A stretch of DNA of 62,245 bases, filler included, from Sphacelaria rigidula (taxonomy: Eukaryota): the NCBI GenBank assembly GCA_964200075.2. It is 9 parts of 9 records of this genome, joined end to end, with 100 filler letters (N's around TTAATTAATTAA, not from the genome) between each part and the next. Parts side by side here need not be neighbours in the genome. Positions count along the whole stretch, not along the records: positions 55,419 to 62,245 come from CAXNAA020017885.1; 8 more parts are not named here. One strand, 5' to 3'. Numbering within the stretch: position 1 is the stretch's first letter; the number at the start of each line of letters is the position of its first letter. The notes beneath the pieces were generated by a model. That model saw nothing but the letters and a program-made list of their open reading frames with translations. It was not told where the DNA came from and did not search any database. Positions 5,424 to 62,245 of the stretch are shown piece after piece. The position numbers and the translations under genes are program-made.

Positions 5424-5980
5424 CAAAATTGTGTTCTGCAGGGTACGGGTTTTTGTTTTCCCGGGGTACTTTCCCGGGCATTTACCGTACCCGACCCTTT
5501 CATACCGGTACCCGACAGTTCCGTAAAGTCTGTAAGACTTTCATACCTTTACCCGATAATTTTGTGAGTTCTGTGAGCCTCTTGTACCGATACCGGGGGC
5601 ACGGGTATGCTCTTGATATAATACGCAGTTGCGGGTACGGTTTTCCGTGCAGCCTTCATACCCTGCCCGACACTCTCTGTGAGGTTAGTACGCCTCCCAT
5701 ACCCTTGCCCGGCAGTTCTGTGAGCTCTGTACAGAATGTATGCCCGTACCCGGAGCGCGGGTATGCCTTTAAAGAAATACCCAATTGCCGGTACGGTTTT
5801 CTGTGAGCCTCCCGTACCGTACGCGACAAGTTCTGTATTTTCTTTAAGACTTTCAAACCAGTACCCCACAGTTGTGTAATTTCTGTGAGACTTTCATACC
5901 GGTACCCGATATTCCTGTAAGTTCTGTACGGAATCCCATACCCTACAAAATATACCCGTACCTTACAGAACACAACCTTG
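5424..5980 (-). mobile_element. Minisatellite-filled MITE, copy 1 (hAT-like CAAGG termini)
   Basis: TIR (CAAGG)TTGTGTTCTGTAGGGTACGG / CCGTACCTTACAGAACACAACCTTG. Interior built from GGGTA..TATGAAAGTCTTACAGAA.TCACAGAACTGTC units. Reverse orientation relative to copies 2 and 3. Confidence 0.8.
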
Positions 5981-6828: not shown

Positions 6829-6928
6829 NNNNNNNNNNNNNNNNNNNNNNNNNNNNNNNNNNNNNNNNNNNNTTAATTAATTAANNNNNNNNNNNNNNNN
6901 NNNNNNNNNNNNNNNNNNNNNNNNNNNN
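6829..6928. other. Artificial contig spacer, first of eight (others: 13757-13856, 20684-20783, 27611-27710, 34538-34637, 41465-41564, 48392-48491, 55319-55418)
   Basis: Each is 44 N + TTAATTAATTAA (stops in all six frames) + 44 N. The segments between them are all 6827-6828 bp, as expected for size-sorted concatenated contigs. Confidence 0.97.
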
Positions 6929-8460: not shown

Positions 8461-9088
8461 CAAAGTTGTGTTCTGTAGGGTACGGGTGGGTATGTTCTGT
8501 AGGGTATGAGATTCCTTACAAAACTTACAGAAATATCGGGTACTGGTATGACAATCTCACAGAAATTACAAAACAGTCGAGTACCGGTACTGGATGAAAG
8601 TCTTACAGAAATTACAGAACTGTCAGGTACGGTAAAGGATCCGTACAGAAACACCGTACGGGCAATCGGGTATTTCTTCAGAAACATACCCACGCTCCAG
8701 GTGCGGGTAAACATTCTGTACAGAACCCACAGAACTGTCGGGTTAGGGTATGGGATGCTTACAGAACTCACAGAAACTGTCGGGTAGGGTAATGAGGTTA
8801 CACAGAATACCGTACCCGCAACCGGGTATCTCATCAAGAGCGTACCCGTGCCCCCCGATAACGTTACGGGAGTCTTACAGAGATTACAGCGGTATCGGGT
8901 AAGGGTATGAAAGTCTTACAGAGATCACAGAACTGCCGGGTACGTGTATGAAAGTCTTACAGAGATCACAGAACTGTCGGGTACCGGTATGAAAGTCTTC
9001 CAGAAATCACAGAACTGTCGGGTACGGTAAATACCCGGCAAAATACACCATGTGTACAGAAAACCGTACCCTACAAAGCACAACCTTG
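8461..9088 (+). mobile_element. Minisatellite-filled MITE, copy 2
   Basis: Starts CAAAGTTGTGTTCTGTAGGGTACGG and ends CCGTACCCTACAAAGCACAACCTTG. Same internal ACAGAA/GGGTA units. No clean TSD. Confidence 0.85.
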
Positions 9089-9694: not shown

Positions 9695-10307
9695 TGAGGT
9701 TGTGTTCGGATCAAACCTATATCCGTACCTCTCCAGGGTACATACCTATGCTCATACCTGCAATCGGGTACATCTATAACGGTATATCCTAACCCCGGGT
9801 AGAGATACGGGAAGCTTACAGAGCTCACAGAACCGTCAGGTACCGGCACTGGATGAAAGTCTTACAGAAATTACACAACTTGTCGGGTATGGTATAGGAG
9901 CCTTACAGAAACACCGTACGGGCAATCGGGTCTTTCTTCAGAAGCATACCCGCGCTCCAGCTACGGGTAAACATTCTGTACAGAACTCACAGAACTGTCG
10001 GGTTAGGGTATGGGAGGCTTACAGAACTCACAGAAACTGTCGGGTAGGGTATGGAGGTCGCACAGAAAACCGTACCCGCAACCGGGTATCTCATCAAGAG
10101 CGTACCCGTGCCCCCCGATAACGGTACGAGAGCCTTATAAAGATAACAGAAGTATCGGGTAAGGGTATGAAAGTCTTACAGAGATCACAGAACTGTCGGG
10201 TACCGGTATGAAAGTCTTACAGAAATCACAGAACTGTCGGTTACGGTAAATACCCGGCAAAATGCCTCGGGTATACAAAAAACCGTACTCTACAAAACAC
10301 AACCTTG
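9695..10307 (+). mobile_element. Minisatellite-filled MITE, copy 3
   Basis: 9840-10307 is collinear with 8580-9088 and ends ACACAACCTTG. Confidence 0.85.
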
Positions 10308-13756: not shown

Positions 13757-14099
13757 NNNNNNNNNNNNNNNNNNNNNNNNNNNNNNNNNNNNNNNNNNNN
13801 TTAATTAATTAANNNNNNNNNNNNNNNNNNNNNNNNNNNNNNNNNNNNNNNNNNNNCAATAACCGAAATGTTGGGGTCCTACGGGAAAATCCAATTTCAG
13901 GGTATTTCGGCGATCCGAGATGTAGTGTGGATACGAAGATTTTAATGCTCCGGGTTCTCATCCTCAATGAAAAGCACCACCCTCAACATAGATGATCGGC
14001 TGTTCCAGGCATGACTATCCCACTTCGTTCAGTGGTTGTCAGTGGTGGTTTCAGCATGTGTGTGTTATGTGTGAGTGGGCGAATACGAGAGTGAATTAA

Positions 14100-20610: not shown

Positions 20611-21050
20611 AGGTTTTGACACTTTCTACGATAGCCCCCCCCCCCCAAAAGTGCATGGTTTTGGGAGGCAAAATCTTCACCTANNNNNNNNNNNNNNNNN
20701 NNNNNNNNNNNNNNNNNNNNNNNNNNNTTAATTAATTAANNNNNNNNNNNNNNNNNNNNNNNNNNNNNNNNNNNNNNNNNNNNGATCCCTTGAGACCACG
20801 GACTCATCCCGAGGAAGGGGAGGGTTCAAATTGTGAGGGAAATAAATAAATCAAGCGATCGAACCATTATCAGCCCCCTTTTTTTCGGGCCAAACTAAAG
20901 GCATATCTCAAGGGCCAGGAGAACGTCAGCATAGAGGCAAGACGAACACTGACATCCTCGACTGGTTTCCATAACGCGTCCAACAAGTTTCACGCGGGAG
21001 TTGCGGCAAGCTGGGGCTAAAAATATTCCATTTCCTGCAGGACTACTCAC

Positions 21051-22694: not shown

Positions 22695-25446
22695 AGACAA
22701 AGGGGCGTACAGTCCCCCATATTTCAGCCGAAATGTAGGTACAGATAGCCGCACAGGTTGGAGCTGTCCGCGCCAGGCCCAAACCACCCAAACATCAATG
22801 CCCACGTGAACGCAAGGCGCCCACAGCACATGCAAAGCGTGTGCACCAACGTTCGCGAAAAAAGAGCGCGGTTTGATGGCGAAGCAGCGCCGCGGGAAGA
22901 AAGGGCCATGCAGTGTATCCCGCTATGTCCGACAACGGGGTAGGTAAACCCTGCGAACACTACCCAATTTATCTTGTACCGCATCCTGTCATTTGCTGTC
23001 TCATATTATGTCCAACGTGTACCTCTATTTGACCAATATGGGCCTTCCACAGCCCCCGTCCAGTTCCGCGCGCGGGAGAACATCGACTGGACGTCAGACG
23101 TCTCCAATCCTTCTTTTTGCCGTTTTTTACCTCTTTCTACGACGCGGAGACGCAACAGCCCACGCATTCACCTCTTTCTACGGCACGGAAACGCAACAGC
23201 CTACGCATACTTGTACCTCTCTGTACGAACTGGTTGGGTCGAGACCTCTGCCGGGTGATTGACACCCCGCGCCACGGGACTGTTGGCAGCCGGCACGGCA
23301 AGCTGCCAAAAAAGCTGCGCAAAAGAGAATACGAAGAGAGAAACAAAGTATGGAATACAATGGCTGAGCCGCTCGGTCCCTCAGCCGTGGCTTTCGCCCC
23401 CCACCGCAAGTGCAGACAACTTCCCTACGTGGCGGCGGAAACATGGCGAACGCTGCCTCACCGCCGGCGGCAATCTCGGCGAGACAAATTGCAGTCGGCG
23501 ACGTGTTTCAGATCGCAAAAGAGTTGGAAGTGAGCTTCGAGAGACTGATGTATTATGCCGGTCGCCAGGGCCGGGTGAACAAGGGGGTCACAGGCGGGCG
23601 GAGCAAGCGCCGTAGGTATCGTGGCGCGCTCATTGTAGAGGTGGTTATGGGGGGGGCGTGGTTATAGGGGCAAGAGGGTGCCCGGTGTTGGTTCGGGCAT
23701 GCCAACACGCTACGAAGGAGTGGTACGTAACCGAGGCCATTCTAGATCACATCCAGTGCTCTGGATAAGCTGGCGACAAAGGTAAGAAAGCCTGCCGGAG
23801 GTCGGTGGAGGCGGAGCCTTCGAAACAAATTGAACCAAACAGCAAAATATCATCGCCGGCTCTGGCAAGAACGCTGAAGTCGACTCGTGGGGTCGAGATA
23901 TCGGAGTGTACCGCCAACCGCGTGCGATCCGACGTCCTCGGGAGAGACTCAGAATCGCTGCCAAGAGAATATCAGGTGTTGGACATTTACTGCCGTATGC
24001 TCGGTAAAGGCCCGAGCAACATCGTGGAATGCTCGGTAAGTACCTTGCTGGGTCTGCAAGTGTTATCCTCAGATCAGGAGTGCGTGAGCACCTGGTACTC
24101 TTTTGCCAGCGCATGTCCGTCTCGTCCGAGCACGTCGGATCGCACGCGGTTGGCCGTACGCTCCGATATCTCAACGGCACAAGTTGTCTTCAGCGTCCTT
24201 GCTAACGCCGGTGATGATACTTTACTCTTTGCGTGCATCAGCTTGGAAGCCTCCGCCTCCGACCACCTCCGACAGGCCTTTTTCACCTTCTCCCCAGCTT
24301 GTCCAGAGCACTGGACATGATCTAAGATGGCCTCGGTCACGTGCCACTCCTTCCTCTAGTGTTGGCCTGCCCGCACCAACACCTGGCACTCCTTTGCCCC
24401 CTTGACCCCATCTACAATCACCGCCCCATTGCACCGATGGAGCTTGCTCCTCCCGCCTCCCACCCGCTTTCTTGTCCAGCCGGCTCTGGCGAACGGCAGA
24501 CAGAATCATTGTCTCCAAGCTCATATTTTACTCTTTCTAGTTTTCAACCACGTCACTGATTGCAATCGTTCTCGCCGAGATTGTCGCCGGCGGTGCGGCA
24601 GCGTTCGCCATATTGCCGGCGCCGGCAGGGCAAGTTGTCTGGACCTGGTCCCGCTGGATACCAAACGATGACTGAGCGATACCAAGCGATGACTGAGCGA
24701 CGGAGGGGTTCAGCCATCGTATTCCGTGATTTCTGCCGTCTGCGTCCTGTTCCATTCTTGGCAACTTGTGCCGTGTGCCAACGGTAGTGGGGTGTGTCAA
24801 ACACTCCACAGAAATATCGAGTCTCCACGCCGTAGAAAGAGGAAAAAATGAGCGTGGACTCTTGCGTCTCGTAGAAGGAGGTAAAAGTAAGCGTGGGCTC
24901 TTGTGTCTCGAGGCCGTAGAAAGAAGTAAAAAAAAGCGTGGGCTCTCGCCGTCTCCAGGACGTAGAAAGGGGTGAAAGTAAGCGTGGGCTCTTGTGTCTC
25001 CAGGACCGTAGAACGAGGTTAAAGAAGGATTGGAGAAGTCCTTCGTCCATCCGATTGTGTGCCGTACGCTGGATCGGACGGCGGCTGTGGAAGGGCCATA
25101 TTGATCAAAGAGAGGTACACCTTGGACATAAAATGAGATATCATAAGGCAAAATAAGGTACAAAATGAACTTGGTAGCTCTTGCTGGGTACACCTACCTC
25201 ATCTCGGACACCATAGGGTACTCTGCAAGGCTCTTGTTTCCCGCGTTGTTAGCCCGTAAAACCGCGCTTTTTTTCCCGCGAAAGTTGGCGTACATGCTTT
25301 GCATGGGCTGTGGGCACCTTGCCTTCGCGCGGGGATTGATTTTTGAGTGGTTTGGATCTAGCACGGACAGCTCTGCTCTCTAACTTGCGCGGTTACCTGT
25401 ACCTTCGTTTTGGCTGAAATGGGGTGGATTGTACCCACGTTTGCCT
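22695..25446. mobile_element. Inverted duplication of the 5' part of a Mutator/MULE element (two converging truncated transposase fragments)
   Basis: 22695-23995 aligns with the reverse complement of 24072-25446. Left arm from ATG 23443 reads IAVGDVFQIAKEL, GCPVLVRAC..EWYVTEAILDHIQC (MuDR-type Zn finger) and GVEISECTANRVRSDVLG..EYQVL, ending at a GTAAGT donor (24036). The right arm carries the homologous peptide from ATG 24611. Confidence 0.75.
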
Positions 25447-25993: not shown

Positions 25994-26457
25994 CAAGGGC
26001 AGGTCGAGTACAGTATACTCAATACTCAGTATTTTCGAAGAGTCATACTTTTAGTACTCAAATTGTTGAGTAGCGTATTTGAGGTCGTACTCAATCTACT
26101 CAAAATTTTGAGGAGACTATTTGAGATCATACTCAATCCACTCAAAATTTGAGTAGAGTATTAAGGTCATACTCAGGTGATACTCTATACTCAAGTATTA
26201 CTGAGAGTGCTTACTCAATACTCGAGTAAAGTATTTGAAGTCGTGCTCGATCTGCTCAATATCTTATTAGAGTATTTGAGGTCATACTTAACCTACCCAA
26301 ACGTTTGAGTAGAGTATTCGAGGCCGTACTCGACCTACTCAAAATTTGAGTTGAGTATCTGAGGCCGTAATCGATCTACTCAAACTTTGAGTAGAGTAAA
26401 TATTCAAGTATTTCACTCGAGTGCTCAGAAGTACATAATCTACTCGACCTGCCCTTG
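25994..26457. mobile_element. hAT-like MITE filled with TACTCAA/TTGAGTA repeats
   Basis: TIR CAAGGGCAGGTCGAGTA / TACTCGACCTGCCCTTG. 8-bp flanks CAACGTTG and GAACGTTG match 7/8. Confidence 0.85.
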
Positions 26458-27610: not shown

Positions 27611-27710
27611 NNNNNNNNNNNNNNNNNNNNNNNNNNNNNNNNNNNNNNNNNNNNTTAATTAATTAANNNNNNNNNNNNNNNNNNNNNNNNNNNNNNNNNN
27701 NNNNNNNNNN

Positions 27711-34359: not shown

Positions 34360-35022
34360 ACGTACTTCCGTTTCCATCATCTGGCCAGATGCGTTCATCA
34401 AAATGTTGGCCCTAACTTGACGGGGGAGGGAGAAGAGGAGGAGGAGGGGGGGGGGGGGGGGGGGTTTTTTTTAAATCTCCCCCTCCTTCAGGTGTTTTTT
34501 TTTTAACAATTTTTTTTTGTTTGGGAGAGAACCGTCTNNNNNNNNNNNNNNNNNNNNNNNNNNNNNNNNNNNNNNNNNNNNTTAATTAATTAANNNNNNN
34601 NNNNNNNNNNNNNNNNNNNNNNNNNNNNNNNNNNNNNGGTCCGCCCCTACAAAGCCGGGACGGAGCACGCCGGGTTCTCACCGGACCAGGCTGAGGGGGG
34701 GAGGGGGGGATGAGTCAAGGCTGTGCAGGATAAGGATGACGATGGAGTCAGCTGGTTTTGCGTTCCGAAAGGTCGCAGCAGGCCGTACAAGAAGGCACGA
34801 AGTCTCAGCCAAGCCTGACTTTCGAAGCGCTGCAGACACTACAGCGCCTCGTTGTGATATCATCTTCTCCTCACACGCACGACGAAGTATTCAAGGAACG
34901 GTATCATCGGAGGTTGGGTTTGGTGGTTGGAATCGCGTGTAAAAAATGCTTCGTCACACCTCACTGAAAATTCTACAAATCCTGGCAGCACCTCGTCAGG
35001 AAACACACACACACACGCAAAC

Positions 35023-39477: not shown

Positions 39478-42400
39478 TAAAGATCGCAGCGTCTTAACGT
39501 GGCGACGCAGCGAACTTTTTTTTTGTGCAGTCTAGCTTGTGTTTGTGCACACAGCAAGCAGGATGAGCTGCGCCCTGTATACCTTCGTATCACGCTAGCA
39601 TTGCGGTTGACGCTTACACAGCAGCGAAGACGTATGAATGCGCGACTCCAGAGCAGCAACTGGCAGTGTGCAAACATAGAACATTAGGAAGGCAGGGTAA
39701 ATGCAGTACACTTGCGAGGCATTGGACTACTGTATCGGGCCCGGAGCCCGTTACAATATCCACATAGCACGCGTTGCCTCTTCGGTCGAAACCAGAGGAA
39801 TAAAAGCTGCCTAGCGGCGCATGGGCTCCACAGGGGTCATGTAGCGACCTTGATCACCACTACAGGATGGGGGCGGTATAAATTTGCTACCTGTACAGTC
39901 CGGACCACGTTCCGGTTGGGATGAAAATTTATATTTTTGTCCGGAATTCGTTAGCATACCAGGCATTCTACTCTCATACCTCCCCCTTACCCTATAGTAG
40001 AGGGGGCTGGCGTGGGGTGGGATCGGTCCATCTGCTCTTAGCATCATGTCCCCTGGTGAGTCGCATAATCGATTCTGTTGGCTCCACCGCTCTCCGAGCC
40101 TCCCCTTCTCCGCGCGCGCGCAGGGGGGGGGAGGGGTGTTAAAACCGTGACACTAACCAGGCGCGACACTACTGTTGCTCATCACGCTACCAGAGATTGC
40201 AGACACTCCTACAACAGTGCGACCAATTTAGAATGTTAATGTTGTGCCGAGCTCAACTTGGTCGCTCATACCTTACACGATTTGTACTGCACTGTTTAGA
40301 CATGAAAATAACAGGAGCAATTCCGGTGCAGCTCACCGCGATGATGTTCCTGCCGCGAGTACTACCTTGTTCACCGCGTACACGCCCCTCCACGTAGGCA
40401 CGACCCGTAGAGGCACCAGGCCTTCGCAGCAGAATCATGACCCTCATATCGCGAAATTGTGTAGCATATGCGTGATACGTATAATAGAGATTTCATACAG
40501 TCCTGCTGTCACTTGCTGTCACAGTGGCCCGGCATATTTGAACACGATCCATCACATTGGCCCGGCATATTTTCAGTTCCGGGCTGTCGAGGCAGAACTC
40601 CGTAGAGGTACAGGGAGTAAGGAGTAAGGAGTATATACTGGAAGTGAGAATTCAGTCTACAGTCAATGTGTAAGCAGTGGTGTGATTCAGCTTGTATTCT
40701 TCCTGATGACGCCCATTACTGCTGCTGCAGAAGCCTTTTCTATGCCCTTCATGCACCTATAGGTTGACCTCAATTTCTTATGCTTCGAGTGCGTCGGGCA
40801 GCTCGCTTCATCGTACCATATCACATGTGTAATGTGTACCGTTTGTTTCGTGCCGACGTGATGGCAGAGCAGAGAAGGAATTGATCAACGATCTGCAGAT
40901 CCAGTTATTTCCGTTCTGTTTGCACATGGTCATATGCTGCCTCCGCCACAATACAACCAGCGACGGACAATGAGCGTTTAGAACAGCCCCGGATGCCAAT
41001 GCATAGCCAAAACGTGACGTACTCACCTTCAAAGAGCTCTGGTGTTCAGAGTTGCGTCGTCAACAACGAAGTGGTCGTCATCACACACACAGCACCAGTT
41101 TGTGGTGAACCAGCTATCGCCCGAACTCCGCGTTTTCGATTCTCGTGAGTTTCCCAGCAAATTGATCCGCTGAACCAACGGTGGAGCGAGGTGAGTGAAA
41201 GCAAGCATGCAAGTTCAATACCTGCTGCAGTAACACAGGCGGCTGACAGGCCCTTGGTGGTGTACGTACTGTGTATTTGTGCATTATGGGAGAAATGACA
41301 CGCCACTGGATGAATGAGCATATTATGTATAACAGTGTTTTCGTGAGATTGAGAGTGGATGATACGATTGAGAGTGGCTTTGATCTTTCGCTTTAAGTGA
41401 GTCATTTTTTTATTCCAGGTGTGTTTTTCTTTACCTCCATCACTTGCGTGTGGTTACAGCTACANNNNNNNNNNNNNNNNNNNNNNNNNNNNNNNNNNNN
41501 NNNNNNNNTTAATTAATTAANNNNNNNNNNNNNNNNNNNNNNNNNNNNNNNNNNNNNNNNNNNNAACGATTCATTCACTGATTGCCCGCTTTTCACTCTC
41601 AATCGTGTCAGCTACTCTCAATCTCACGAGAACACTGTTTCATGTGGGCGACATTGCTGCAAAACGAGCCCAACAGTGAGATCGCAGCGGGTTTGTCGGA
41701 CGGTCTCCAGTGCACGTTTTGTGGGGGGCTATCTCAGCATTAGTCAATATACTGTATGGAGAAACCCATACTCTCTGCATTTTACGGTCTGTTGGCTCAG
41801 GCTAAATGGTCCGATTAACAACCACCCCTACTTCCTTGGGCTATCGGTTCCATTGCACGGCATCGAGAGCCACGCGAACCGAGGAGACAAGGCCGAGATG
41901 AGTAGATGCTTCAGTGAAGTCCCTGCGTCCAAAGAGGCACACCCGGTCGAACATTCTCGTTTCCCAATACACATAGTACATTTGCTCCCTCGTTTCAGCG
42001 CGGCTGATCCACTTGTTACTCAGACATAATACCTGAATATTTCTAGCAAAGCGACGAGTTAAGCCCGCCGCGAGATACATACTTTTCCCGTTCAAACCGC
42101 TTGTCCTAACCAACATATATGCGAAAAAACATGCATACAATGTTGTTGAAAGGAATGGCACCTGGCCAAGATGAGTATAAGGACGGGCGAGGTATCCGTG
42201 TCCACTTCGGTCCTCCATTGCCGCCTCTACTGGAGAAAAATCGAGAAATGTTGGCACAGCGCGACCTGTGCCCGAGCACTTAGCGCGCAAGGGGGACGAA
42301 ACGCTATTGCAACCACACTGAATTAACTTGCTGGTCGAGGTCCGCCTCTCGGTATCAACCACCCCCACCCTCTTATCTTTGCGGACGAAATGTGCCTTTA

Positions 42401-43499: not shown

Positions 43500-45004
43500 T
43501 ACAACTTGTTGTTCCGTACGAGCTGACGCTGGGCAGAGACTCCACCCAGTCACACCCTCGATCGGATGGGAAGTATCTCCCGACCATCACCTCCGGCAGT
43601 GGCGCTAGCCACGCCACAATCTCGATCGGCTGGCCATGGCAACCTTCAATAGTCAGCTGAACCAGCGACGCATGTCACGCCATACCCTCCATCGGATGGG
43701 TGATGCACGCTCCGAATGTCTATTGCTGCGGCGAACGTCTCCACATCGCAATCTCACTCTGAGGATGGGGTTATCTTCGAACGTTGGTTCTCGCAGCGAG
43801 GCAGGCCATATCACACCTTCGATCCACTGGTGGAATGCTTTTCCGAACGTGAGTTCCTGCAGTGACGCAGGCCACGTCACACCCATGGTCGACTGGTTGA
43901 ACTTCGACGAAAACTTGAGTACCTGCAGCGAGGCAGGCCATATCACACCCTCAATCGGCTGGTTGAAATACGTTCCGAACTTCAGCTGCTGCAGTGACGC
44001 AGGCCATACCACACCCTCGATCGGCTGGTTGAACTTCGACGAAAACGTGAGCTGCTGCAGTGACGTAGGCCAGGCCACACTTTCAATCGGCTGGTCAAAG
44101 CTATCTCCGAACGCCAGTTGCTGCAGTGACGCCGGCCATGCTCCACCCTCGATCGGCTGGTCAAAGTCTTTTCCGAAACTCAGCTACTGCAGCAACGCAG
44201 GCCACACAACACCTTCGATCGGTTGGTTGAACATTCGCCCGAATTCTAGCTTCTCGAGTAACGGAGGCCACACAACACCCTCGACGAATTGGTTAAAGCA
44301 ACATCCGAACGTCAGCTGCTGCAGTAACACAGGCCACGCTACCCCTTCGACGGACTGGTTGAACTCCTCGCCGAATGTCAGCTCTTGCAGCGAAGCAGGC
44401 CACGAGACACCCACTATCGGCTGGTTGAACCTCCGCCCAAATTCCAGCTGCTGGAGAGACGCAGGCCACTCCACCCAAATGACGGCCTGATTGAACCTCT
44501 GGCCGAGTCTCAGCTCCTGCAGCGAAGCAGGCCAGACCACCTGCGTAATGGGTTTGTTGAACCCTGCTGGCATGGACCTACAGCCATCCTGAAACACAAT
44601 CTTCCTGAGCTGCTGGGGCCAGACCATTGAGTGCAGACTATGGTTGAACATGTGGTCAAAGTATATGTTTCGTACATCGGACAGGAGGATGGTCTCACGA
44701 GACATGATCTTCTCGTTAGCAGTGGATGTCCACACAACGCTACGTACTCGTAACGGAGGCACTCGAGATCCACGAGTGCGGCCTGTACCCCCTGTCATCG
44801 GACAACGAGATTTCTCGGCGGGATCGGCCCATAGCGTTCGCGGTGTAGACCAATCCAATTTCACTCTCATGGCGCCTGTGCTTCGACAAGCTATGCAGAG
44901 CTGCAGTGACGCCAACTGTAAGTGTTTTGTGGGAAAGCACGAGTCTCCCTGAGAGGACGCTTCGTCGAGGGCAACGGTGAAGGCCTTCAGACAAAGGTTG
45001 CTGC
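43500..45004 (-). pseudogene. FNIP-repeat (LRR-like) protein with an in-frame stop and a degenerate 3' end
   Basis: About 13 22-aa units FNQPIEGVVWPASLQQLxFGxx. ORFs 44184-45026 and 43653-44078 share a frame and are split by a TAG at 44186-44184 where the consensus has CAG. Pyrimidine tract and CAG acceptor at 45007-45005. Broken units below ~43770. Confidence 0.9.
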
Positions 45005-48391: not shown

Positions 48392-48849
48392 NNNNNNNNN
48401 NNNNNNNNNNNNNNNNNNNNNNNNNNNNNNNNNNNTTAATTAATTAANNNNNNNNNNNNNNNNNNNNNNNNNNNNNNNNNNNNNNNNNNNNCTTAAAGCG
48501 AATGATCAAAGCCACTCTCAATCGTATCATCTACTCTCAATCTCACGAAAACACTGTTATAGGTCACATGCCAGGTCACACACGTCACATAGGCCAGAAA
48601 TCACGTTATAAATAGTATACAATATACCCCTATGTATCATATACCCCAAATATATCACATTCACAACGATATATGGAAAAATGCAGGGGACTTGACTACA
48701 AATATATCAACTTTCATGACATATCACCTTTTTCTGGAGGGGTGGATATGGATACACTATGAAGCTACTAACTACTGAGTCCGATGCACCCCTCCCTCCG
48801 AGGCGGTGGGCGGTGTCATGTGGCGCCCTTTGTGGTTTGCCTAGTTCAT

Positions 48850-52993: not shown

Positions 52994-53371
52994 TCAGTCT
53001 TTCTTCACGACCTTCTTGGGCAAAAGGACAGCGTGGATGTTGGGCAACACCCCGCCCGATGCGATCGTCACCTCGCCGAGCAATTTGTTGAGCTCCTCGT
53101 CGTTGCGAACTGCAAGCTGGATATGGCGGGGTACGATACGGGCTTTTTTATTGTCACGAGCGGCGTTGCCAGCCAGCTCCAGCACCTCGGCGGTCAGGTA
53201 CTCGAGCACAGCCGCCAGGTACACGGGGGCACCGGCCCCCACGCGGGCCGCGTACTTTCCCTTCTTGAGGAATCGACCGATACGACCAACGGGGAACTGC
53301 AGGCCGGCCTTCGCTGACCTGGTCACCGACTTCTTGCTCTCGCCGCGTCCGCCCTTTCCCTTGCCAGACAT
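52994..53371 (-). CDS. H2A: Histone H2A, canonical type, intronless
   Basis: [75 protein letters not shown]. No C-terminal SQ(E/D) motif of H2A.X. Confidence 0.99.
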
Positions 53372-53704: not shown

Positions 53705-54055
53705 ATGGCCAAGACACCGTCGAAGAAGTCCGCAAAAGCCCCCAAGAAGGCAGGAGACAAGAAGAAAAAGGCCAAGAAGGTGGAGTCGTACTCATCGTAC
53801 ATCTACAAGGTGCTCAAGCAGGTGCACCCCGACACGGGTATCTCCAAGCGCGGCATGTCCATCATGAACTCGTTCATCAACGATGTTTTCGAGCGCGTAG
53901 CCGGTGAATCCGGCAAGCTGACCCGCTACAACAAGAAGTCCACCCTATCCTCTCGCGAGGTGCAGACGGCCGTGCGCCTCATGCTTCCCGGAGAGCTGGC
54001 GAAGCACGCTGTATCCGAAGGCACAAAGGCTGTCACCAAGTTCACCTCGTCCTGA
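53705..54055 (+). CDS. H2B: Histone H2B, intronless
   Basis: [76 protein letters not shown]. Confidence 0.99.
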
Positions 54056-54176: not shown

Positions 54177-55419
54177 CTGCCCAGGAGGAAATGTATCATC
54201 GTCAGTGTGGTTGACCCGTGCACAATGAGGGAGATACTGAAGGACATCGTGGTATTCTGTACTGACGCTCCCGGTGAAGCCCCCGACATAACTATCGCGG
54301 GGTACTGTAGTCAAAAGCGTCGCTCACTCCGGATGCTCATGCATCGTGGAATTTTCATGAGGACTTCAAATGTGACTCGTCGCGCCCGCCACCGATCGCG
54401 TACTCCGTGGTATTTTGCATACTCAGACGGTTGCAATCGTACTACTAACTTATGCCTACTAACTTATGCCACGTGAATTTTTTGTTTGCGGTATTGCACA
54501 AACGGTCTGCTGCACACTTTGCTCCGCTTACGACGCGACTAAAACTGTTGTACCAAGAGGCAATCGGCTGGAGTAACGGTTGATATGTTCGATCCCTACT
54601 ATACCAGCAGCTACTGTGCGTGTGTGTGTGTGTTTGTGTGTGCCATCCCATCCATGCTGTACCTTCATGGGATTATTTACGCGTAGGTTTACCACAGGCT
54701 TGCCGCTGGTGGCACAAGCACAAAATGCAAATGATGACCAGTGGCACGCAGGCTAGATGATGTCCTCTGGTGTGCATATCCACAGGACTTTTTCGTGGAC
54801 TAAAAGACCCACTTTTATGGCAAACGAATCCCGATTTTTTTGGACACCGATTTTGAAAAAATCGGGGTGACCATTTTATGGCACAGACGGTAAGGTATCA
54901 CAGATTTGTGAAACGGTTCTGTACACAGACGGTCATTTTTTCATGAGTGTCATACTGCGTTCTCGTGCATGAGGCCGAAGAGCAGGCAGGCGGTAAACAA
55001 TCAATCCTTCGAGTACAGGGTCGTACCTTGATGCCTTCAATTAATACAGTGTAGTACACTTCATCAGTACAGTACATGATGATGCCTTGTGGTCGTACAT
55101 GGTGGTACAGGTATCGCGAGAACAGAGGACAAACAGTGCGCGAGCAGAGTTCAAAAGGCAGTGCCGCACACATCACCCCTCAAGCACAGCGACAACAGTT
55201 AGGAGAGTGCAATAGCGTTCGTTATAGTGATACACATGGCAGGGTGGCGCAGTATAAAATATTAATATCGCCGTAGGGTATGGCATCAGCACTTATTATC
55301 CGCTTGTCAAACCCCGTGNNNNNNNNNNNNNNNNNNNNNNNNNNNNNNNNNNNNNNNNNNNNTTAATTAATTAANNNNNNNNNNNNNNNNNNNNNNNNNN
55401 NNNNNNNNNNNNNNNNNNC

Positions 55420-57114
55420 GGCAGCAGGAAGGCGGAGTTCTGCGCGACACACGCCCGAGCGGGCATGGTCGATGTGGTCAACAGGCGGTGCGGCGAGAAG
55501 GGCTGCTCCACTCAACCGTCGTTCGGTGCAGCCGGCAGCAGGAAGACGGAGTTTTGCGCCGCACACGCCCGAGCGAGCATGGTCGATGTGAACAAAAGAC
55601 GGTGCGGCAAGAAGGGCTGCTCCACAATACCATCGTTCGGCGCAGCCGGCAGCAGGAAGACGGAGTTCTGCGCCGCACACGCCCGAGCAGGTATGGTCGA
55701 TGTGATCAGCAAGCGGTGCGGCAAGGAAGGCTGCTCCACAACACCGTCGTTCGGTGCAGCCGGCAGCAGGAAGGCGGAGTTCTGCGCCGCACACGCCCGA
55801 GCGGGCATGGTCGATGTGAAGAGCAGGCGGTGCGGCGAGAAGGGCTGCTCCACTCAACCGTCGTCCGGTGCAGCCGGCAGCAGAAGGGCGGAGTTCTGCG
55901 CGACACACGCCCGAGCGGGTATGGCCAATGTGGTCAGCAAGCGGTGCGGCAAGAAGGGCTGCTCCACAAGACCGTCGTTCGGTGCAGCCGGCAGCAAGAA
56001 GCCGGAGTTCTGCGCGACACACGCCCGAGCGGGTATGGTCAATGTGGTCAGCAAGCGGTGCGGCAAAAAGGGCTGCTCCACAAAACCGTCGTTCGGTGCA
56101 GCCGGCAGCAGGAAGGCGGAGTTCTGCGCCGCACACGCCCGAGCGGGCATGGTCGATGTGGTCAGCAGGCGGTGCGGCATAAAGGGCTGCTCCACTCAAC
56201 CTTCGCTCGGTGCAGCCGACAGCAGCAAGATGGAGTTCTGCGCGATGCACGTCCGAGCGGGCATGGTCGATGTGAAAAGCAGGCGGTGCGGCAAGGACGG
56301 CTTCTCCGCAATACCGTCGTCCGGTGCAGCCGGTAGCAGGAAGGCGGAGTTCTGCGCCGCACACGCCCGCGCAGGGATGATCTCCGTGAGTAGCGATGAA
56401 TGCGTCTCGCAGTATCATCCTAATCTGGTTCGGGAGCACGGGAACAGCTACCGTGGTGCTGCGCATGATTTGGTCGGATGGTCTGATCTCGTGGAACATA
56501 TCCGAGGAAAAACCCCATCGAGTGATGACTTCGTCACGGGAGAAACGGGCGTCAGTATTGAAAATAGATGTAAAAAATTCGGTCCTCCACCGAATGCCGG
56601 TCCCAATACCAACGATAACGGTCGTAACGCTCATACTCGTTGCAACCCGCGTGTCATCCGCGATAGGCAACGGGGTGTGAATTCCACGACCATGTCGCTT
56701 GCCCATTCGAGACAGCCCCCCGGCCCCGCGGCAGCAGGTAGGGTTACTATTGGTAGGGCAGAGATGCGCATGAAAATCAAAACGGAGGGGACTGTTGCGC
56801 CTGCGCGACATTTCGAGAGGATACGAAGTAGCAAACGAGTTATTGCGGGATCCAGCAGTTGCGACAGCATGGGCCTTGGCGCATCCAGCAGGACTACCAG
56901 AAGCAGAAGTTGTGCCAATAGCATCACCAATGGAAGGAAGGCGAAGCGGCTTCGCCGGATGGCCCAGTTGCAGCCGGCACTTGACGTAGCAGCCGGTGAT
57001 GATGTAATGTCCGAAAACGACGAAACCGACGTGAAGTTAGATCTAATCGTGTCCTCCACGTCTCGTCACTTGTCCGCGGCTTCATCCCGCTTGCGCAAGA
57101 AGCAAATTGAATGA
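55420..57114 (+). CDS. EsV-1-7 cysteine-rich repeat protein (5' end missing at contig edge)
   Basis: Eight 38-aa units MVDVVSKRCGKKGCSTxPSFGAAGSRKAEFCAAHARAG (C-x4-C-x16-C-x2-H) plus a partial unit from 55420. The C-terminal region has basic NLS-like RKAKRLRR and RLRKK. The frame is open to the contig start. Confidence 0.92.
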   Translation, partial: GSRKAEFCATHARAGMVDVVNRRCGEKGCSTQPSFGAAGSRKTEFCAAHARASMVDVNKRRCGKKGCSTIPSFGAAGSRKTEFCAAHARAGMVDVISKRCGKEGCSTTPSFGAAGSRKAEFCAAHARAGMVDVKSRRCGEKGCSTQPSSGAAGSRRAEFCATHARAGMANVVSKRCGKKGCSTRPSFGAAGSKKPEFCATHARAGMVNVVSKRCGKKGCSTKPSFGAAGSRKAEFCAAHARAGMVDVVSRRCGIKGCSTQPSLGAADSSKMEFCAMHVRAGMVDVKSRRCGKDGFSAIPSSGAAGSRKAEFCAAHARAGMISVSSDECVSQYHPNLVREHGNSYRGAAHDLVGWSDLVEHIRGKTPSSDDFVTGETGVSIENRCKKFGPPPNAGPNTNDNGRNAHTRCNPRVIRDRQRGVNSTTMSLAHSRQPPGPAAAGRVTIGRAEMRMKIKTEGTVAPARHFERIRSSKRVIAGSSSCDSMGLGASSRTTRSRSCANSITNGRKAKRLRRMAQLQPALDVAAGDDVMSENDETDVKLDLIVSSTSRHLSAASSRLRKKQIE

Positions 57115-58269
57115 AAAACTCGTGCACGCCTTTCCCCCCGCTGATGTTGGACACAGCGCTGTTTCACCGTATCTGTGGTACGCAGGTCATGATTCTGCTT
57201 TGACCTCCGCAATGCTCGTAAGTTGTTTCGTTTTGAGGTCAAAGCGGTAGCTGTGTTTGGTCGGTAGCCTGTGAGGGGGAGGCCGCTGAGCCATTCTCCT
57301 GGATGTATGTGTAGTGGCGCATCGTCTCCTACAATGGTTCCCGAAGCTTGGTGAGTTTGCTAGCTGCATCTTTTGATGGTTATGTCACTGCTTCCGGCAG
57401 GGAACCGCGCAGAAGAGTGCATTTGTAGCCATGTGCCATACAGCGGCGTCCCAGTGATGCAACGGGTTGATGCAGAATCGTTGAGGGCGAGAGGTTTTGG
57501 CTTGTGTGTCTGGTGGGTCGTTTTTCTCATGTGTATCTTACTTCTCTCTTTGAACGCGTGAGGGCATGAGTATCCGGGGATATCTGACAACAGCCGACAA
57601 GATGTGGGGGTGCTGACCCATTGGTGGTACCAAAATGTTCGGCATGCACCAGGGGAAAAATGGAGAATCCCTTGAGATTCCGATATCGTCCCGGGGAACG
57701 TGATCGGTTGGGAGTGACATGAAGAGAAAAACAGTCAATGCGCTGCTCGTCGCACCATTGTTTTCTTCGCGATACATAGGATCGGATACTTGTACCCAGC
57801 GGCAAGAGTGCGCAGCGAGGAGGTACGTCCCCGGTAAATAGCACGAGATCCCGAACTGCTTGGTAAAACTGACGTGAGGTGGCCACGTACAGCGTAGCAG
57901 CACGACGCACGTGCACCCTGTTGAACGATTTCGCGCAACTTCTCAACAATTGAGGATGTGCGACATCCGTGCTCGCCCGTACGCCTCGTGCCTGTGGGGA
58001 TATCGAATTTGTGGGTGCCGTGAACTTTAGGATTACCCAGACTAGAACCGAGTTCCAAACTGCAATGTAAGTGCTGAAACAGGACAGCTCGAGTAAACCC
58101 CTGCACGCAAACATCGAGGTTTTGGCAGCCGACACTGAGATCAAATAGTTTGAGCAGGGTCGGTACAAACCGATGCCGAGAGCGTTTTCCACACAGATTA
58201 GCTCTAGTGACTGATACCGGGTCGTTCGTGTTTTGTCCGATACCACGGGATCTTACAAATTGGAAAAGA

Positions 58270-58923
58270 GAAACCCGGAGAACTAAAATCTTCGTATCCA
58301 CACCAAATCTTCGGAATATGGTTCCATTTCTTGGCCTACTGATATCAGGTGACAACAACTACACGTCATACAAATTTGGATCTCGATACCCGAACTGTTG
58401 GAGTCCTAGGTGAAAAACTAGTTTCAACAACGTTTTTGTGAGATCGAGAGTAGAGCGCTGATTGAAAGTGGCTTTGATAATTCGCTGTAACTTAGCCAAT
58501 GTTTCCACTACGTGTGCTTTTTTTCACCTCCATCACTGGCGTGTGCTTACAGCTACACGTTGATATCCCACTCAGGGATATCAAGGGCATCAGTGTCAAG
58601 CTACTACGGAAAGCATATTGGCCCTCGGGGAGGGGCATTCGGAACTGAAACGATTCATTCACGAATTGACCACTTTCCACTCTCACTCGTATCCTCTCAT
58701 CTCAATCTCACGAAAACACTGTTTTTTGAGGAATTTCGGGTGTCCGAACGGACACCAAAATGGTTTCGAGATTGGTTCATCACCTAGGGCCGCAAACTTG
58801 TGGTGATCGAAATCCAAAATTCCATGGCGTGTAGCAGTTGTCAATATCCATCAGTACGTCAAGAAACGGAACCATATTTCGAAGATTTGGTGTGGATACA
58901 AAGGTTTCAATCCTCCGGGTTTT
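58270..58923. mobile_element. Diverged TIR element with a CAGTG-family MITE (58428-58721) nested inside; related fragment at ~13860-13960
   Basis: AAACCCGGAG..CTTCGTATCCACACCAAATCTTCGGAATATGGTTCC pairs with GGAACCATATTTCGAAGATTTGGTGTGGATAC..CTCCGGGTTT. Confidence 0.75.
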
Positions 58924-60886
58924 TGATCCCCAAGAAAAGATCCATCCCCAATTTGTAAGATGCCGTGTTCAATCGTGGCAAATTCAGTCGGATGTTCTGC
59001 GTTGTTCCCATCACAACTGTAATTCCTGCAACAGGCAGACGATCGATTCACACCCTCGCCGCCTTCAACTATTGGGCACGAGATGCCGCAAAACGACCCA
59101 AGATCTGCCCCCAGCGGATTATGCGACAATCAACAGCTTCAGCATGAATCAACTCGCTAAATGTCATGAGCAGGGGGTTGTGGACAAACCATTTCACAGA
59201 GCTTGTCATGGATGTATTGTTTTCATGGAAATGTCATCCTACGATAGGGGGTGGGTATTTGATTGCACGAGACATGGCGCACACATCCTGACTCTGTGCG
59301 CTGTTGACTGCACGGTGAAAACCGGTCGGCGATTCCCCGGTGTCCGGATCTATATTGATGCCCAGCATCCACATGAGGATAAAGGAGGCGTTTTGTGTAG
59401 CGACGGAAAAACCTTTTCTGAACCCCAAATGTGGCATATTCCAACTCAGTCCAGTTGAGGGGCGGTCGCTGTGTAGGGGTGAACAAAATCGACCCAACTA
59501 GTCGAGGAGATGGGCACTTTTTCCCTTGATCAGACGCTTGATATACGGTACGCGGATCATGCCCCACTAGAGGCGGCCAAGCTCGTATCGTGCTTGTGTT
59601 GGAGAGCTATCGGATGTGTTGCTCCAGAGGGCCGCCTTGTGTCCAAAACGGGTTGAGAAAATAACTGCACACAATGTATTTGCGCGTTCCCGTATGAGCA
59701 AGGTCTTATCTTGTCAGGCAGGCATCGTTGTCCTCCTTCCAGGCGTGTGGGAGATAATCAGTATGCTCGGGGCCGAATAATCCTATGATGCGGATCACCC
59801 TTCATACGACTCGCAGAACATATCACGGCGGTGATGCGGTTTGTGATATATTTCGAGCCTTGTCCGGCGAAAATCCGGGGTGCGCCGTCCCGGCTGTGAA
59901 GGGATGCGAGGTCAACGGTCACGATCACGAATACACACCGCTTCTTTGGCTACGCTCCCTTGAAGGGTTGGCGTTCGTTGGAAACGACACTGTGATACAC
60001 GCCACTCGCTGCAAAAGCTGGGCAACCAGCTCACCACTTCCCGCCTTCCCCCCCCGCTGTTATTAGGAGTAGGAACGGTGCTCCGTCTCGAAAGAGATTC
60101 GTGGTCAACGGTCAAACGACTAGGGCCGGCAACAAATGAGTATGCCCCCCCCCCCGCAAACATCGAATACTCCATTGGATTTGTTTCCACCAAATTCCCC
60201 CGGGCTCGGCCCCGAGCGCTGAGGCCGGATTGGATCGGCTGACGGCAGTGGGCCGAGGAAGGACACAGCTAATATGGAGAATCAGTGTTATGTACGGTCA
60301 AACTGCTCCGTACCATGTCCCTGCTGGAGCTGGGTGACTCCTGCTGTCAAAGTACCCCTGCACGCGCAAGGTGTATGGTGGTAAACATACGTGATACAGT
60401 CGATACTCTCCCCCGGTCGTACGCCCGAACTACCGTGACCGGGTTCAGGCCAGCAAAAACGGCGACCCCTGGAAGCGCATGACTCCGGCTTGTGCGCAGA
60501 GTAGCGTTTACCGCCTGACTGCTCTGCACCACAGAGATGGGGAATTGATTGCCCATCGCGCTGGCATTACTTCCTGCATTATACGTTCGTTTGCCCCCGT
60601 GACATTGCTGTTACATGGCTATGATACCGAAACACACCCTGCCTCAACTTGCGGGGGCCGCCAATCCAAGTGCTCCTCGCTGCCGCCGAAAACGTTGTCA
60701 CCGTAGCTCTGAGAGCAGACAGCGCCGTGCGTGCAAGCATAAATGTCGACTTGATGGAGATCAGCGTGCGTGGGGCCTGCTCAACTCCGCGCACGGACGA
60801 AGAGGCAAGGCCCGGCGTAGATAGAAAAGTGCGTGGAAACAGAGAGTAGCCTACATATGCCGGATCAAACGCCAACAGGAACAGAC

Positions 60887-62245
60887 ATGGCGGAAGGAAG
60901 AAAGAGGAGAAGGGGACGACTAGCTCGGGGAGCAGCCGAGGCTCAGGCTCACGTCAATCTTACTATCGCAAGGGCGGAGTCTCGATCGAAAGAGCTGGTA
61001 GTGGCGACTTGGAATGTACGCACCACGGCTGAAAGAGGTTTCAATGGCACGGGCCATGCAGACGACCTGCTGCTTTGTACATCTAAGTACAACGGTGACC
61101 TCGTCACTCTGCAAAGAAACCAGTCGCGATGGTCGAACAACATTCCATGCACCAGCAGCAGGCTATATCGTTTACTGCCGCCACCGCTGCCATGGAGACA
61201 GAGATAAACAGGGGGTGCTCGCAGTCGGCCTTGCCATCAAGGACTCTATCGCCAGCACATTGGACCCAGAAGACACCACCCCTATAGTCACGAGTGCCGG
61301 GATCCCCGAGATACAATTAGCTTCCAGGTATCGAGCTGTAGCAATCTGCATCCTAGGCTATCCCCCTATTCGAAACAGTTCAAGGTTATCAAAGAAACAA
61401 GCTCTGTGAAGCCCCCAGTAGTTACATCGCAGGAGTGCCTGCCAACGAGCATTTGTTGGTAATGGCTGATGCCAATGCTCAAACCGAAAAGAGAGAACGA
61501 GGAGGCATGGATGACGTTCGGGTATTTAGGAAAGTATGGCAGAGATACCAGGAATGATTATGGTAGACGTCGTTGAAAATGTGCTGCGGACTATTCAATG
61601 GACATCACCAACACATTTTTGCACACCATCTTGTGGGGAAAGCTCGACTGTATACACGTATGCGGCCGGTCAAACACCGCTGGCGCCTGGACAACTTCCT
61701 AGTACCGCAGCAAAATGGCAGGCTCATCCGAGGTGTCACCATGCACCCCGGGATGAATTCGGACCATCGTCTGGTCTCAGGCGTCATCCGTCTCCTCGGA
61801 CGGAACGCCCCCGACCGCCAACCGAAACCGCGAGGCGGGGATAGGGAACTGCGGTTTGACCGCAAAGCCATCACGTCTGACCGACGCTGGGGAGCGACTG
61901 TCTCACAGGTCATTGTCGCCAAGCTCCCGAATAACACCAATTGCCCCGCAGTAATGGACATCAACCGCAGGACATCAACCTTCGCCAGCGCCCAGCGACA
62001 GACGACCGCGGAGACACTCCCTCGATGCCCCAAGAAAACCCGAAGTAGAGGTTTCGGTGAGTTTACTCAAGCTTATGATCACTCCTAAAAGGCGTGGGAT
62101 CTCAGGCAAATAACATGGAAGAAATTGTGAGCAAACCCCAAGCCACTGTCGCGAAGAAGGCGCTGGAGGTGATGGACAAGGCGTTCGAACGGGTGAAGGA
62201 TGCTGAGTTGCAAAACTTCGTTCACGAGGTCACAGTCTGGACCGC
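60887..62245 (+). mobile_element. Degenerate non-LTR retrotransposon (RTE-like), apurinic-endonuclease region, cut by the window end
   Basis: ELVVATWNVRT, DLVTLQ/ET, AVGLAIK, LLVMADANAQT, YGRDTRNDYG, WRLDNFLV and NSDHRLV occur in the expected order across shifted frames. Confidence 0.9.

Follow-up and report, generated by a model that had tools for sequence, protein, structure and literature searches.

The question raised by this locus is whether an array of closely similar protein repeats carries, in a few residues of each repeat, the means to recognise an extended target unit by unit. The window, by which we mean the whole stretch of DNA that was analysed, comprises 62,245 nt from the brown alga Sphacelaria rigidula (assembly GCA_964200075.2). 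It is a composite of nine pieces of ~6.8 kb joined by eight regular and identical spacers (N44-TTAATTAATTAA-N44); neighbouring pieces are not necessarily neighbours in the genome, and features at the ends of pieces are cut artificially. An array of cysteine-rich EsV-1-7 repeats, encoded in the 3′ part of a gene, sits right at the start of the last piece (55419–62245, from CAXNAA020017885.1). An initial annotation of this DNA had likened the array to TALE, PPR and C2H2 proteins, as a fixed scaffold with a few diversified residues per unit, and had proposed a programmable nucleic-acid-binding or antiviral recognition protein. The pattern itself proved to hold family-wide, in entropy, neighbour and selection data alike, and the most variable positions turned out to be set unit by unit.

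The reading frame (Table 1) runs from 55420 to a stop codon at 57112–57114 with no earlier in-frame stop. Its 5′ end is missing because the piece boundary was introduced when the window was constructed; the boundary is neither biological nor an assembly gap. Tandem Repeats Finder (TRF) reported a period of 114 nt with 8.3 copies at 55419–56369 (85% matches, score 1315). The translation matched the Pfam family PF19114 (EsV_1_7_cys) in nine stretches, its score of 391.5 bits (E 5e-120) far exceeding the cut-off of 25, and a hidden Markov model (HMM) of the unit, run on all six frames of the window, gave nine contiguous hits in the array and zero elsewhere. As in other members of the family (PF19114, including IMM and EsV-1 gene 7), the units have the form C-x4-C-x16-C-x2-H and a period of 38 residues. 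All four ligands are intact in seven of the eight full units, the second cysteine of unit 8 being replaced by phenylalanine. The gene is a new member of the known EsV-1-7 family.

A 2024 Phaeoexplorer preprint, a 2026 preprint on multicellularity and two reviews (EMBO J, 2026; EvoDevo, 2020) describe a large expansion of the family in brown algae (2018 genes in 31 genomes), a link to viruses and a biochemical function that is still unknown. One study finds these genes to be the largest of all orthogroups across the genomes of brown algae, with the developmental regulator IMMEDIATE UPRIGHT (IMM) of Ectocarpus among its members. These sources bear out the background given in the initial annotation on expansion in brown algae, the connection to viruses and presence in IMM. 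IMM is described as a unique N-terminal domain followed by five repeats, and its orthologues are defined by the IMM-specific N-terminal domain (Denoeud et al.); the N-terminus of the protein studied here is cut off by the window piece. It differs from the rest of the family in a C-terminal tail of 239 aa, which among the named hits occurs only in S. rigidula. The literature searched, a scope outside which the founding 2017 paper and the preprint supplements fall, contained no mention in its accessible parts of unit-specific or hypervariable positions, or of a binding surface, for EsV-1-7.

Cutting the array every 114 nt reproduced the three series of variable residues in the initial annotation. 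The residue x in GCSTxPS, which is Pfam position 9, reads Q,I,T,Q,R,K,Q,I (codons CAA/ATA/ACA/CAA/AGA/AAA/CAA/ATA); the pair before the first cysteine reads VN,NK,IS,KS,VS,VS,VS,KS; and the pair inside CGxxGC reads EK,KK,KE,EK,KK,KK,IK,KD. The units are indeed repeats of one another, but the description of them as nearly invariant did not stand: they differ pairwise at 7–24 of 114 nt (79–94% nucleotide identity), and 38 of the 114 nucleotide sites and 16 of the 38 residue positions vary within the array. Codons 5, 10 and 35 of that annotation's register are variable positions missing from its lists. Position 9 takes five different residues over the eight units, with an entropy of 2.16 bits and 4 nonsynonymous and 0 synonymous events. 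Positions 35–36, codons 20 and 21 in the earlier register, account for 5 further nonsynonymous events. All four bases are seen at the second base of codon 9, as had been pointed out, but this is not improbable by itself, as a four-state site arose in 18% of simulations in which 45 changes were distributed evenly among the 114 sites, and in 10% when only nonsynonymous events were used.

Codons 9, 35 and 36 were named for testing from the within-array entropy in other proteins, with the protein of the window excluded, so that the choice was not made post hoc. Counted as a tree-free minimum, the array has 14 synonymous events (27.3 sites) and 31 nonsynonymous ones (86.7 sites). Of the latter, 9 fall on the three codons, which make up 7.4 sites; their rate is 2.37-fold the synonymous one (one-sided binomial test, p 0.04). 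For the five codons of the initial annotation the factor was 1.99 (p 0.056), and for the other 33 codons it was 0.47. The clustering is above chance, since 9 of the 31 nonsynonymous events fall on the three codons where 2.65 are expected (p 0.00085). Pairwise Nei-Gojobori estimates gave a proportion of nonsynonymous differences (pN) of 0.446 at these codons versus a proportion of synonymous differences (pS) of 0.156 for the array; pN/pS was 0.37–0.56 outside the three codons (0.37 for units 1–7) and 0.78 for the whole array. These values indicate moderate purifying selection on the scaffold. The variable codons clearly outpace it, whereas their lead over silent sites is only suggestive.

We then compared the array with the rest of the family at the protein level. 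A word-indexed protein search yielded 155 proteins with E ≤ 0.001 of 8000 scored, and the best 120 of these 155 were used. From 636 domain hits in 121 proteins we kept 482 ungapped units, 474 of them from outside the window, and dropped 154 that were gapped or cut. In the 55 arrays with at least five units, within-array entropy was highest at positions 9 (1.67 bits), 35 (1.59 bits) and 36 (1.58 bits), the next value being 1.24 bits. The same three positions ranked highest in 14 Sphacelaria paralogue arrays. Position 9 is occupied by arginine in 27–29% and by glutamine in 22–24% of the units, with glutamine making up 2% of all unit residues.

The relation between neighbouring units separates these positions from the others. 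In 804 pairs of adjacent units, most other variable positions were alike well above random partners (excess identity 0.30–0.55), whereas the excess was 0.08 at position 9, 0.08 at position 33, 0.12 at position 36 and 0.16 at position 35. Direct-coupling analysis of 811 unit pairs agrees with this: the strongest couplings join the same position in adjacent units (28, 14, 26, 15, 17, 25 and others), and positions 9, 11, 35 and 36 are not among them.

Selection at the DNA level was measured in two further sets of arrays. For the viral set, a degenerate DNA pattern built on the unit's C..H...GMV[DN]V segment picked up at least 125 giant-virus loci from IMG/VR, whereas a protein query against viral contigs had found zero relatives. 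There were 102 arrays with at least three ungapped units, and removal of arrays that share units left 89 arrays with 464 units and 1090 within-array pairs. Recently duplicated units were picked on one half of the codons and pS was taken from the other half, because picking for low pS biases pS downward. Expressed as pN over this held-out pS in 31 arrays, with the bootstrap taken over arrays, the ratio was 1.58 (1.29–2.01) at position 9, 2.27 (1.84–2.81) at position 11 and 1.77 (1.38–2.21) at position 36. Position 35 gave 1.25 (0.88–1.68), position 3 gave 0.81 and position 4 gave 1.08. A replicate from metagenomes (at least 123 loci, 101 with units, 68 arrays; 61 arrays and 377 units after removal of overlaps) had 9, 11, 36 and 35 as the top four positions again, with ratios lower than the viral ones: 1.40 (1.09–1.81) at position 9 and 1.25 (0.99–1.54) at position 11.

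Orthologous units behave in the opposite way. Ten independent collinear array pairs (of 115 candidates) provided 52 unit pairs, with identities of 0.80–0.90 between the arrays versus ~0.5 within arrays. The ratios at positions 9, 11, 35 and 36 were here 0.45, 0.37, 0.21 and 0.09, respectively, and 0.22 overall; the only two orthologous array pairs in the metagenome set point in the same direction. Taken together, the unit-specific positions change fast after duplication and are then kept between orthologues. The excess over silent sites that the initial annotation would lead one to expect is thus found at the family level, for position 9 in two sets, and stays borderline in this array alone (p 0.04). 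The pair inside CGxxGC, also listed there as diversified between units, is array-specific instead (ratio 0.8–1.1; neighbour excess 0.30–0.34). Such array-specific positions are distinct from the unit-specific positions 9, 35 and 36, to which position 11 is added in viral arrays. EsV-1-7 arrays are common in giant-virus contigs, with single loci of up to 12 units among the matches listed, and unit spacing in the giant-virus and metagenome loci is mostly 114 nt, with some of 108, 111 or 117 nt.

A structural model was obtained with AlphaFold2 and homologue alignments. For the 345-residue array the mean predicted local distance difference test score (pLDDT) was 81.9 and the predicted template modelling score (pTM) 0.49, the start of the tail (residues 322–342, the only part of the tail that was modelled) lying below a pLDDT of 50; a two-unit model reached a pLDDT of 88.4. 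Each unit is predicted to have short strands at 12–14 and 31–33, a bridge at 22 and a helical turn at 24–26. In the cut first unit, which is without 12–14, the segment 31–33 is not a strand, and both end units of the two-unit model have both strands. The strands appear only when both segments are present in one unit, and their pairing is therefore probably intra-unit. The coupling between 13 and 34 ranks 35 and 43 of 2628 within units and 1502 between units. If the strands are antiparallel, positions 9/11 and 36/38 (i/i+2) would extend the 13–34 pair on one face.

The fold searches returned little. Foldseek gave zero matches with E ≤ 0.001 for the array and two-unit models, the best scores of VIA-align against 48,161 representatives were Z 2.7 and 2.5, both to RING domains, and in a second fold comparison the best score was Z 2.7 to the zinc domain of a coronavirus helicase. 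Sequence searches of solved structures produced rows at chance level only, and a search of the ESM Atlas had no usable hit. TALE, PPR and C2H2 proteins appeared neither as a Pfam family at E up to 1 nor among the rows of the fold searches, where a missing row does not exclude a family.

The closest relatives of the protein, among the matches listed, come from S. rigidula itself (at most 52% identity); next are those of other brown algae and of green algae, and numerous proteins from metagenomes. Besides S. rigidula, the brown-algal relatives include Ectocarpus, Pylaiella and Scytosiphon, and giant-virus proteins occur too. The exact protein is absent from the collections searched, the best matches reaching 52% identity for the entire protein and 76% for a piece of the tail, and a search for a longer full-length form gave eight hits, none of them near-identical. 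The 239-aa tail is common to 15 of the best 120 of 155 proteins, all from S. rigidula. An exhaustive HMMER search found 24 relatives of the tail among 1.84 billion representatives; 13 of the 24 are named, 8 through the word-indexed search and 5 from 10 look-ups, and all are from S. rigidula. A word search with the tail only gave zero matches, which is contradicted by the clear HMMER matches and was taken as a limit of the word search. Judged by its named tail matches, the gene belongs to a subfamily that appears restricted to Sphacelaria.

The basic cluster RKAKRLRR and the tetrapeptides IKTE and VKLD are all present in the tail, as annotated. In seven aligned paralogue tails the basic cluster is kept throughout, with the lysine and one arginine invariant. 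The suggestion that the tetrapeptides are SUMO consensus sites fared unevenly: the second (VKLD, in the form [VL]-K-x-[ED]) is kept in 7 of 7 paralogues, the first (IKTE) in 3 of 7. All four ligands are found in 44 of 69 ungapped paralogue units, and much of the subfamily therefore appears to be degenerating.

In public sequencing runs the locus is represented at ~98–100% identity by short unitigs. In one run (X1), which has flat flanks, unitig depth was 4,297–58,788 over the array versus 592–991 over the tail, a difference of roughly 5–100x, because many paralogous arrays share the words of the array. One unitig of 116 nt matches 56159–56274 exactly, and another of 125 nt has two differences. 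Depth drops past ~57.6–57.9 kb in three runs of unrecorded kind and is flat in X1; the drop is no evidence of a transcript end.

We tentatively favour the reading that the gene encodes an array of zinc modules whose contact residues 9, 35 and 36 are set unit by unit and whose target is a polyanion or nucleic acid in the nucleus, although we would stop just short of calling it probable. The protein would then comprise at least nine tandem modules of 38 residues and a basic, probably disordered tail. To judge from ligand conservation, each module probably holds one zinc ion through C1, C6, C23 and H26, and each is predicted to fold independently into a small knuckle and a two-stranded unit. The modules would follow one another like beads on a string. 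Recent duplication or homogenisation, together with purifying selection, would keep the scaffold uniform within an array, while residue 9, beside the conserved Pro10, and residues 35 and 36, after the second strand, would be set in each unit separately. We take these residues to be the probable points of contact with the ligand, in which case each unit could recognise one part of a longer target.

A nuclear polyanion, nucleic acid or some other, is the most likely target. We suspect this because of the net charge of the array (K+R 58 versus D+E 20, about +38 over 325 residues), the preference for arginine and glutamine at position 9, a basic cluster of nuclear type in the tail and a reported fusion with a transposase: according to a 2025 Genome Biology paper (PMC12477816), a Tc1/mariner transposase of Ectocarpus has an EsV-1-7 domain at its N-terminus.

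Comparison with known DNA-binding zinc domains gave one lead. Residues 252–288 (56173–56283) align to positions 1–37 of the 75-position profile of SBP (PF03110), a plant DNA-binding domain that has two zinc sites in about 75 residues, starting at the first cysteine of the unit. The first zinc site of SBP has the same C-x4-C-x16-C-x2-H spacing. At 21.1 bits the alignment fell short of the cut-off of 27, and none of its stretches was significant; no SBP chain was found when a profile of the array was compared with solved structures, and none in the fold searches. The zf-primase family (PF09329) exceeded its cut-off narrowly (29.3 against 28.8) when the nine repeats were added together, none of the stretches being significant alone, and Zf_WRKY19 (PF24906) overlapped the unit starts below threshold in two relatives. 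A distant link between the EsV-1-7 unit and the first SBP zinc site is possible, and we treat it as a lead only.

Several observations weigh against an array read out through residues 9, 35 and 36. The excess in this array is borderline, with 9 events set against 14 (p 0.04, or 0.056 for the five codons named earlier). Arrays of viruses and metagenomes, rather than brown-algal genes, supplied the evidence for selection, and in the metagenome replicate positions 36 (0.91) and 35 (0.88) look neutral. The ratios are uncorrected Nei-Gojobori values, which codon bias, saturation and gene conversion may distort. A metal ligand is lost in 25 of 69 units of the 15 paralogues that share the tail, and also in unit 8 here. 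Among the 15 listed coding differences between the window and the near-identical unitigs, 12 are nonsynonymous and 3 synonymous, which hints at weak constraint on this copy. No contig spans the array, and the short unitigs leave the order and number of units unconfirmed. Finally, the likeness of the module to solved structures does not go beyond Z 2.7.

A role in protein recognition fits the data nearly as well as polyanion reading. Protein recognition is common among small zinc modules (RING, LIM and B-box domains, for instance), and in a scaffold of this kind the diversified residues would tune the choice of partner, possibly in host-virus conflict. The only structural matches of the module, weak as they are, belong to protein-binding zinc modules: RING domains (IDOL, BIRC7, MDM2) at Z 2.1–2.7, and B-box and LIM among the Foldseek rows with E above 5. 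The best structural row for one unit (2yhn_A; Z 2.5, root-mean-square deviation 3.1 Å over 40 residues) is at noise level, and RING domains coordinate two zinc ions, in a cross-brace, while an EsV-1-7 unit offers no more than four ligands. The family is common to giant viruses and their hosts, a setting that favours diversification after duplication, and no DNA-binding family passes the Pfam cut-off with an individually significant stretch. On the other side stand the strong net positive charge of the array and the enrichment of arginine and glutamine at position 9, and an EsV-1-7 domain at the N-terminus of a transposase fits contact with nucleic acid better. The conservation between orthologous units, moreover, speaks against a continuing arms race. 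We therefore regard a protein-recognition scaffold as a serious possibility, if a doubtful one.

Alternatively, the array may be a young tandem duplicate in a decaying, lineage-specific paralogue, its variable codons being simply those of the least constrained loops. Much in this copy agrees with such an origin: the four-state site expected by chance in 10–18% of simulations, a borderline excess over the synonymous rate in an array with pN/pS 0.78, the 12:3 ratio of nonsynonymous to synonymous differences from near-identical unitigs, the 25 of 69 paralogue units that lack a ligand, and a tail with only 24 relatives among 1.84 billion representatives. The values near 0.9 for positions 35 and 36 in the metagenome replicate point the same way. 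Drift between orthologues should, however, proceed at about the synonymous rate, where 0.09–0.45 was observed, and unconstrained sites should homogenise with their neighbours as other variable positions do, which positions 9, 35 and 36 do not. Position 9 also lies above the held-out synonymous rate in two independent sets, and here the frame is open over 565 codons with all ligands in 7 of 8 full units. A purely neutral explanation fits this one copy and not the family data, and we consider it unlikely; the Sphacelaria gene itself is an ordinary member of the family, possibly a weakly constrained one.

A bolder reading would make the EsV-1-7 arrays of brown algae and giant viruses a new class of modular, programmable readers of polymers. 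Each zinc module would supply one set of contacts, at 9 and 11 (flanking Pro10) and at 35, 36 and 38 on one face of a two-stranded ribbon; new specificities would come from the duplication of units followed by change at these residues, and a target would be spelled out by the series Q,I,T,Q,R,K,Q,I. In C2H2 arrays of the KRAB-ZNF type, a few positions per module diversify after duplication and are kept between orthologues. The likeness lies in the tandem small zinc modules and in this combination of diversification after duplication with conservation between orthologues; here, in contrast, the ligands are C,C,C,H with a 16-residue spacer, and there is no C2H2 Pfam hit and no match to a beta-beta-alpha fold. 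TALE arrays likewise consist of near-identical tandem units in which neighbours differ at a few unit-specific residues, but there is no relation in sequence or fold, and the units here are 79–94% identical in nucleotides and vary at 16 of 38 positions. Of the design features of a modular reader, a conserved scaffold with few unit-specific residues is found in positions 9, 35 and 36, plus 11 in viral arrays, and diversification among units with conservation between orthologues is found in relatives and is borderline in this array. We rate the programmable reader as improbable. The candidate contact residues 9, 11, 35 and 36 make an unexplained cysteine-rich motif open to mutagenesis and binding experiments.

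That the order or number of the units, or some of the units themselves, stem from a chimeric assembly of the many paralogous arrays in this genome, and that the series at position 9 does not come from one real protein, is very improbable. In favour of a chimera, array unitig depth is roughly 5–100x that of the tail in X1, no contig spans the array, several unitig joints skip whole units and the paralogue contigs are short (5.6–19 kb). Against it, an exact 116-nt unitig covers 56159–56274, the 125-nt unitig has only two differences, and a chimera would reshuffle units without inventing codons, the family-level pattern being independent of this assembly.

Table 1. Window coordinates of the EsV-1-7 gene, its parts and the spacers between pieces.
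Feature	Position	Strand	Remarks
Open reading frame, 3′ part of EsV-1-7 repeat gene	55420..57114	+	565 codons including stop; open at the 5′ end
Partial first unit (Pfam positions 16–38)	55420..55488	+	HMM 16–38, independent E-value 1e-13; cut by piece boundary
Seven complete 114-nt (38-aa) units	55489..56286	+	HMM 1–38, 76–83 bits each; C-x4-C-x16-C-x2-H intact
Eighth complete unit, degenerate, running into tail	56287..56394	+	HMM 1–36, 56.5 bits
Codon of Pfam position 9 (x of GCSTxPS), first full unit	55513..55515	+	most variable codon
Codon of Pfam position 9, repeated every 114 nt	55627, 55741, 55855, 55969, 56083, 56197, 56311	+	
Codons of Pfam positions 35–36, second variable cluster	55477..55482, every 114 nt	+	after GMVDV strand, before basic linker
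Non-repeat tail, 239 aa	56395..57111	+	basic (K+R 39, D+E 25)
Tetrapeptide IKTE	56776–56787	+	SUMO-like
Basic cluster RKAKRLRR	56935..56958	+	would resemble a nuclear localisation signal
Hydrophobic-K-x-acidic tetrapeptide VKLD	57031..57042	+	
Spacers	6829–6928, 13757–13856, 20684–20783, 27611–27710, 34538–34637, 41465–41564, 48392–48491, 55319–55418		

Three further candidates in this piece were rejected. The long antisense and +2 frames over the array are by-products of a stop-free repeat, and the Pfam match occurs only in the + frame from 55420. A higher-order repeat of three units was indicated by a TRF period of 342 nt at 88%, but close similarity is limited to units 1, 4 and 7 (7–9 differences), and units 2/5 and 5/8 differ at 19–21 sites, which leaves the three-unit repeat weak. 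The open reading frames downstream, at 60.8–62.1 kb, were considered as a retroelement fragment, an idea given up because Pfam returned no match for them with E ≤ 0.01.

On the 3′ side of the EsV-1-7 gene, an inverted repeat at 58260–58440 and 58753–58933 has arms of 181 nt that are 74% complementary and 312 nt apart. Its words reach a unitig depth of 200,000–490,000 in X1 versus ~500–900 in the flanks, and it looks like a very high-copy element of the miniature inverted-repeat transposable element type.

The remaining observations concern other pieces of the window. The piece preceding the EsV-1-7 gene carries a divergent histone H2A/H2B gene pair at 52994–53371 (−) and 53705–54055 (+), matched by the Pfam families Histone and Histone_H2A_C, which bears out the eukaryotic origin of the DNA. 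Another piece contains a degenerate tandem repeat of 66 nt (also 132 and 198 nt) with ~10 copies at 43774–44541. Tandem-repeat families of 41–46 nt occur in the first four pieces (5829–5928, 8719–9027, 9980–10248, 23129–23208, 24821–25023 and 26055–26398) and are probably dispersed satellites or derived from transposons.

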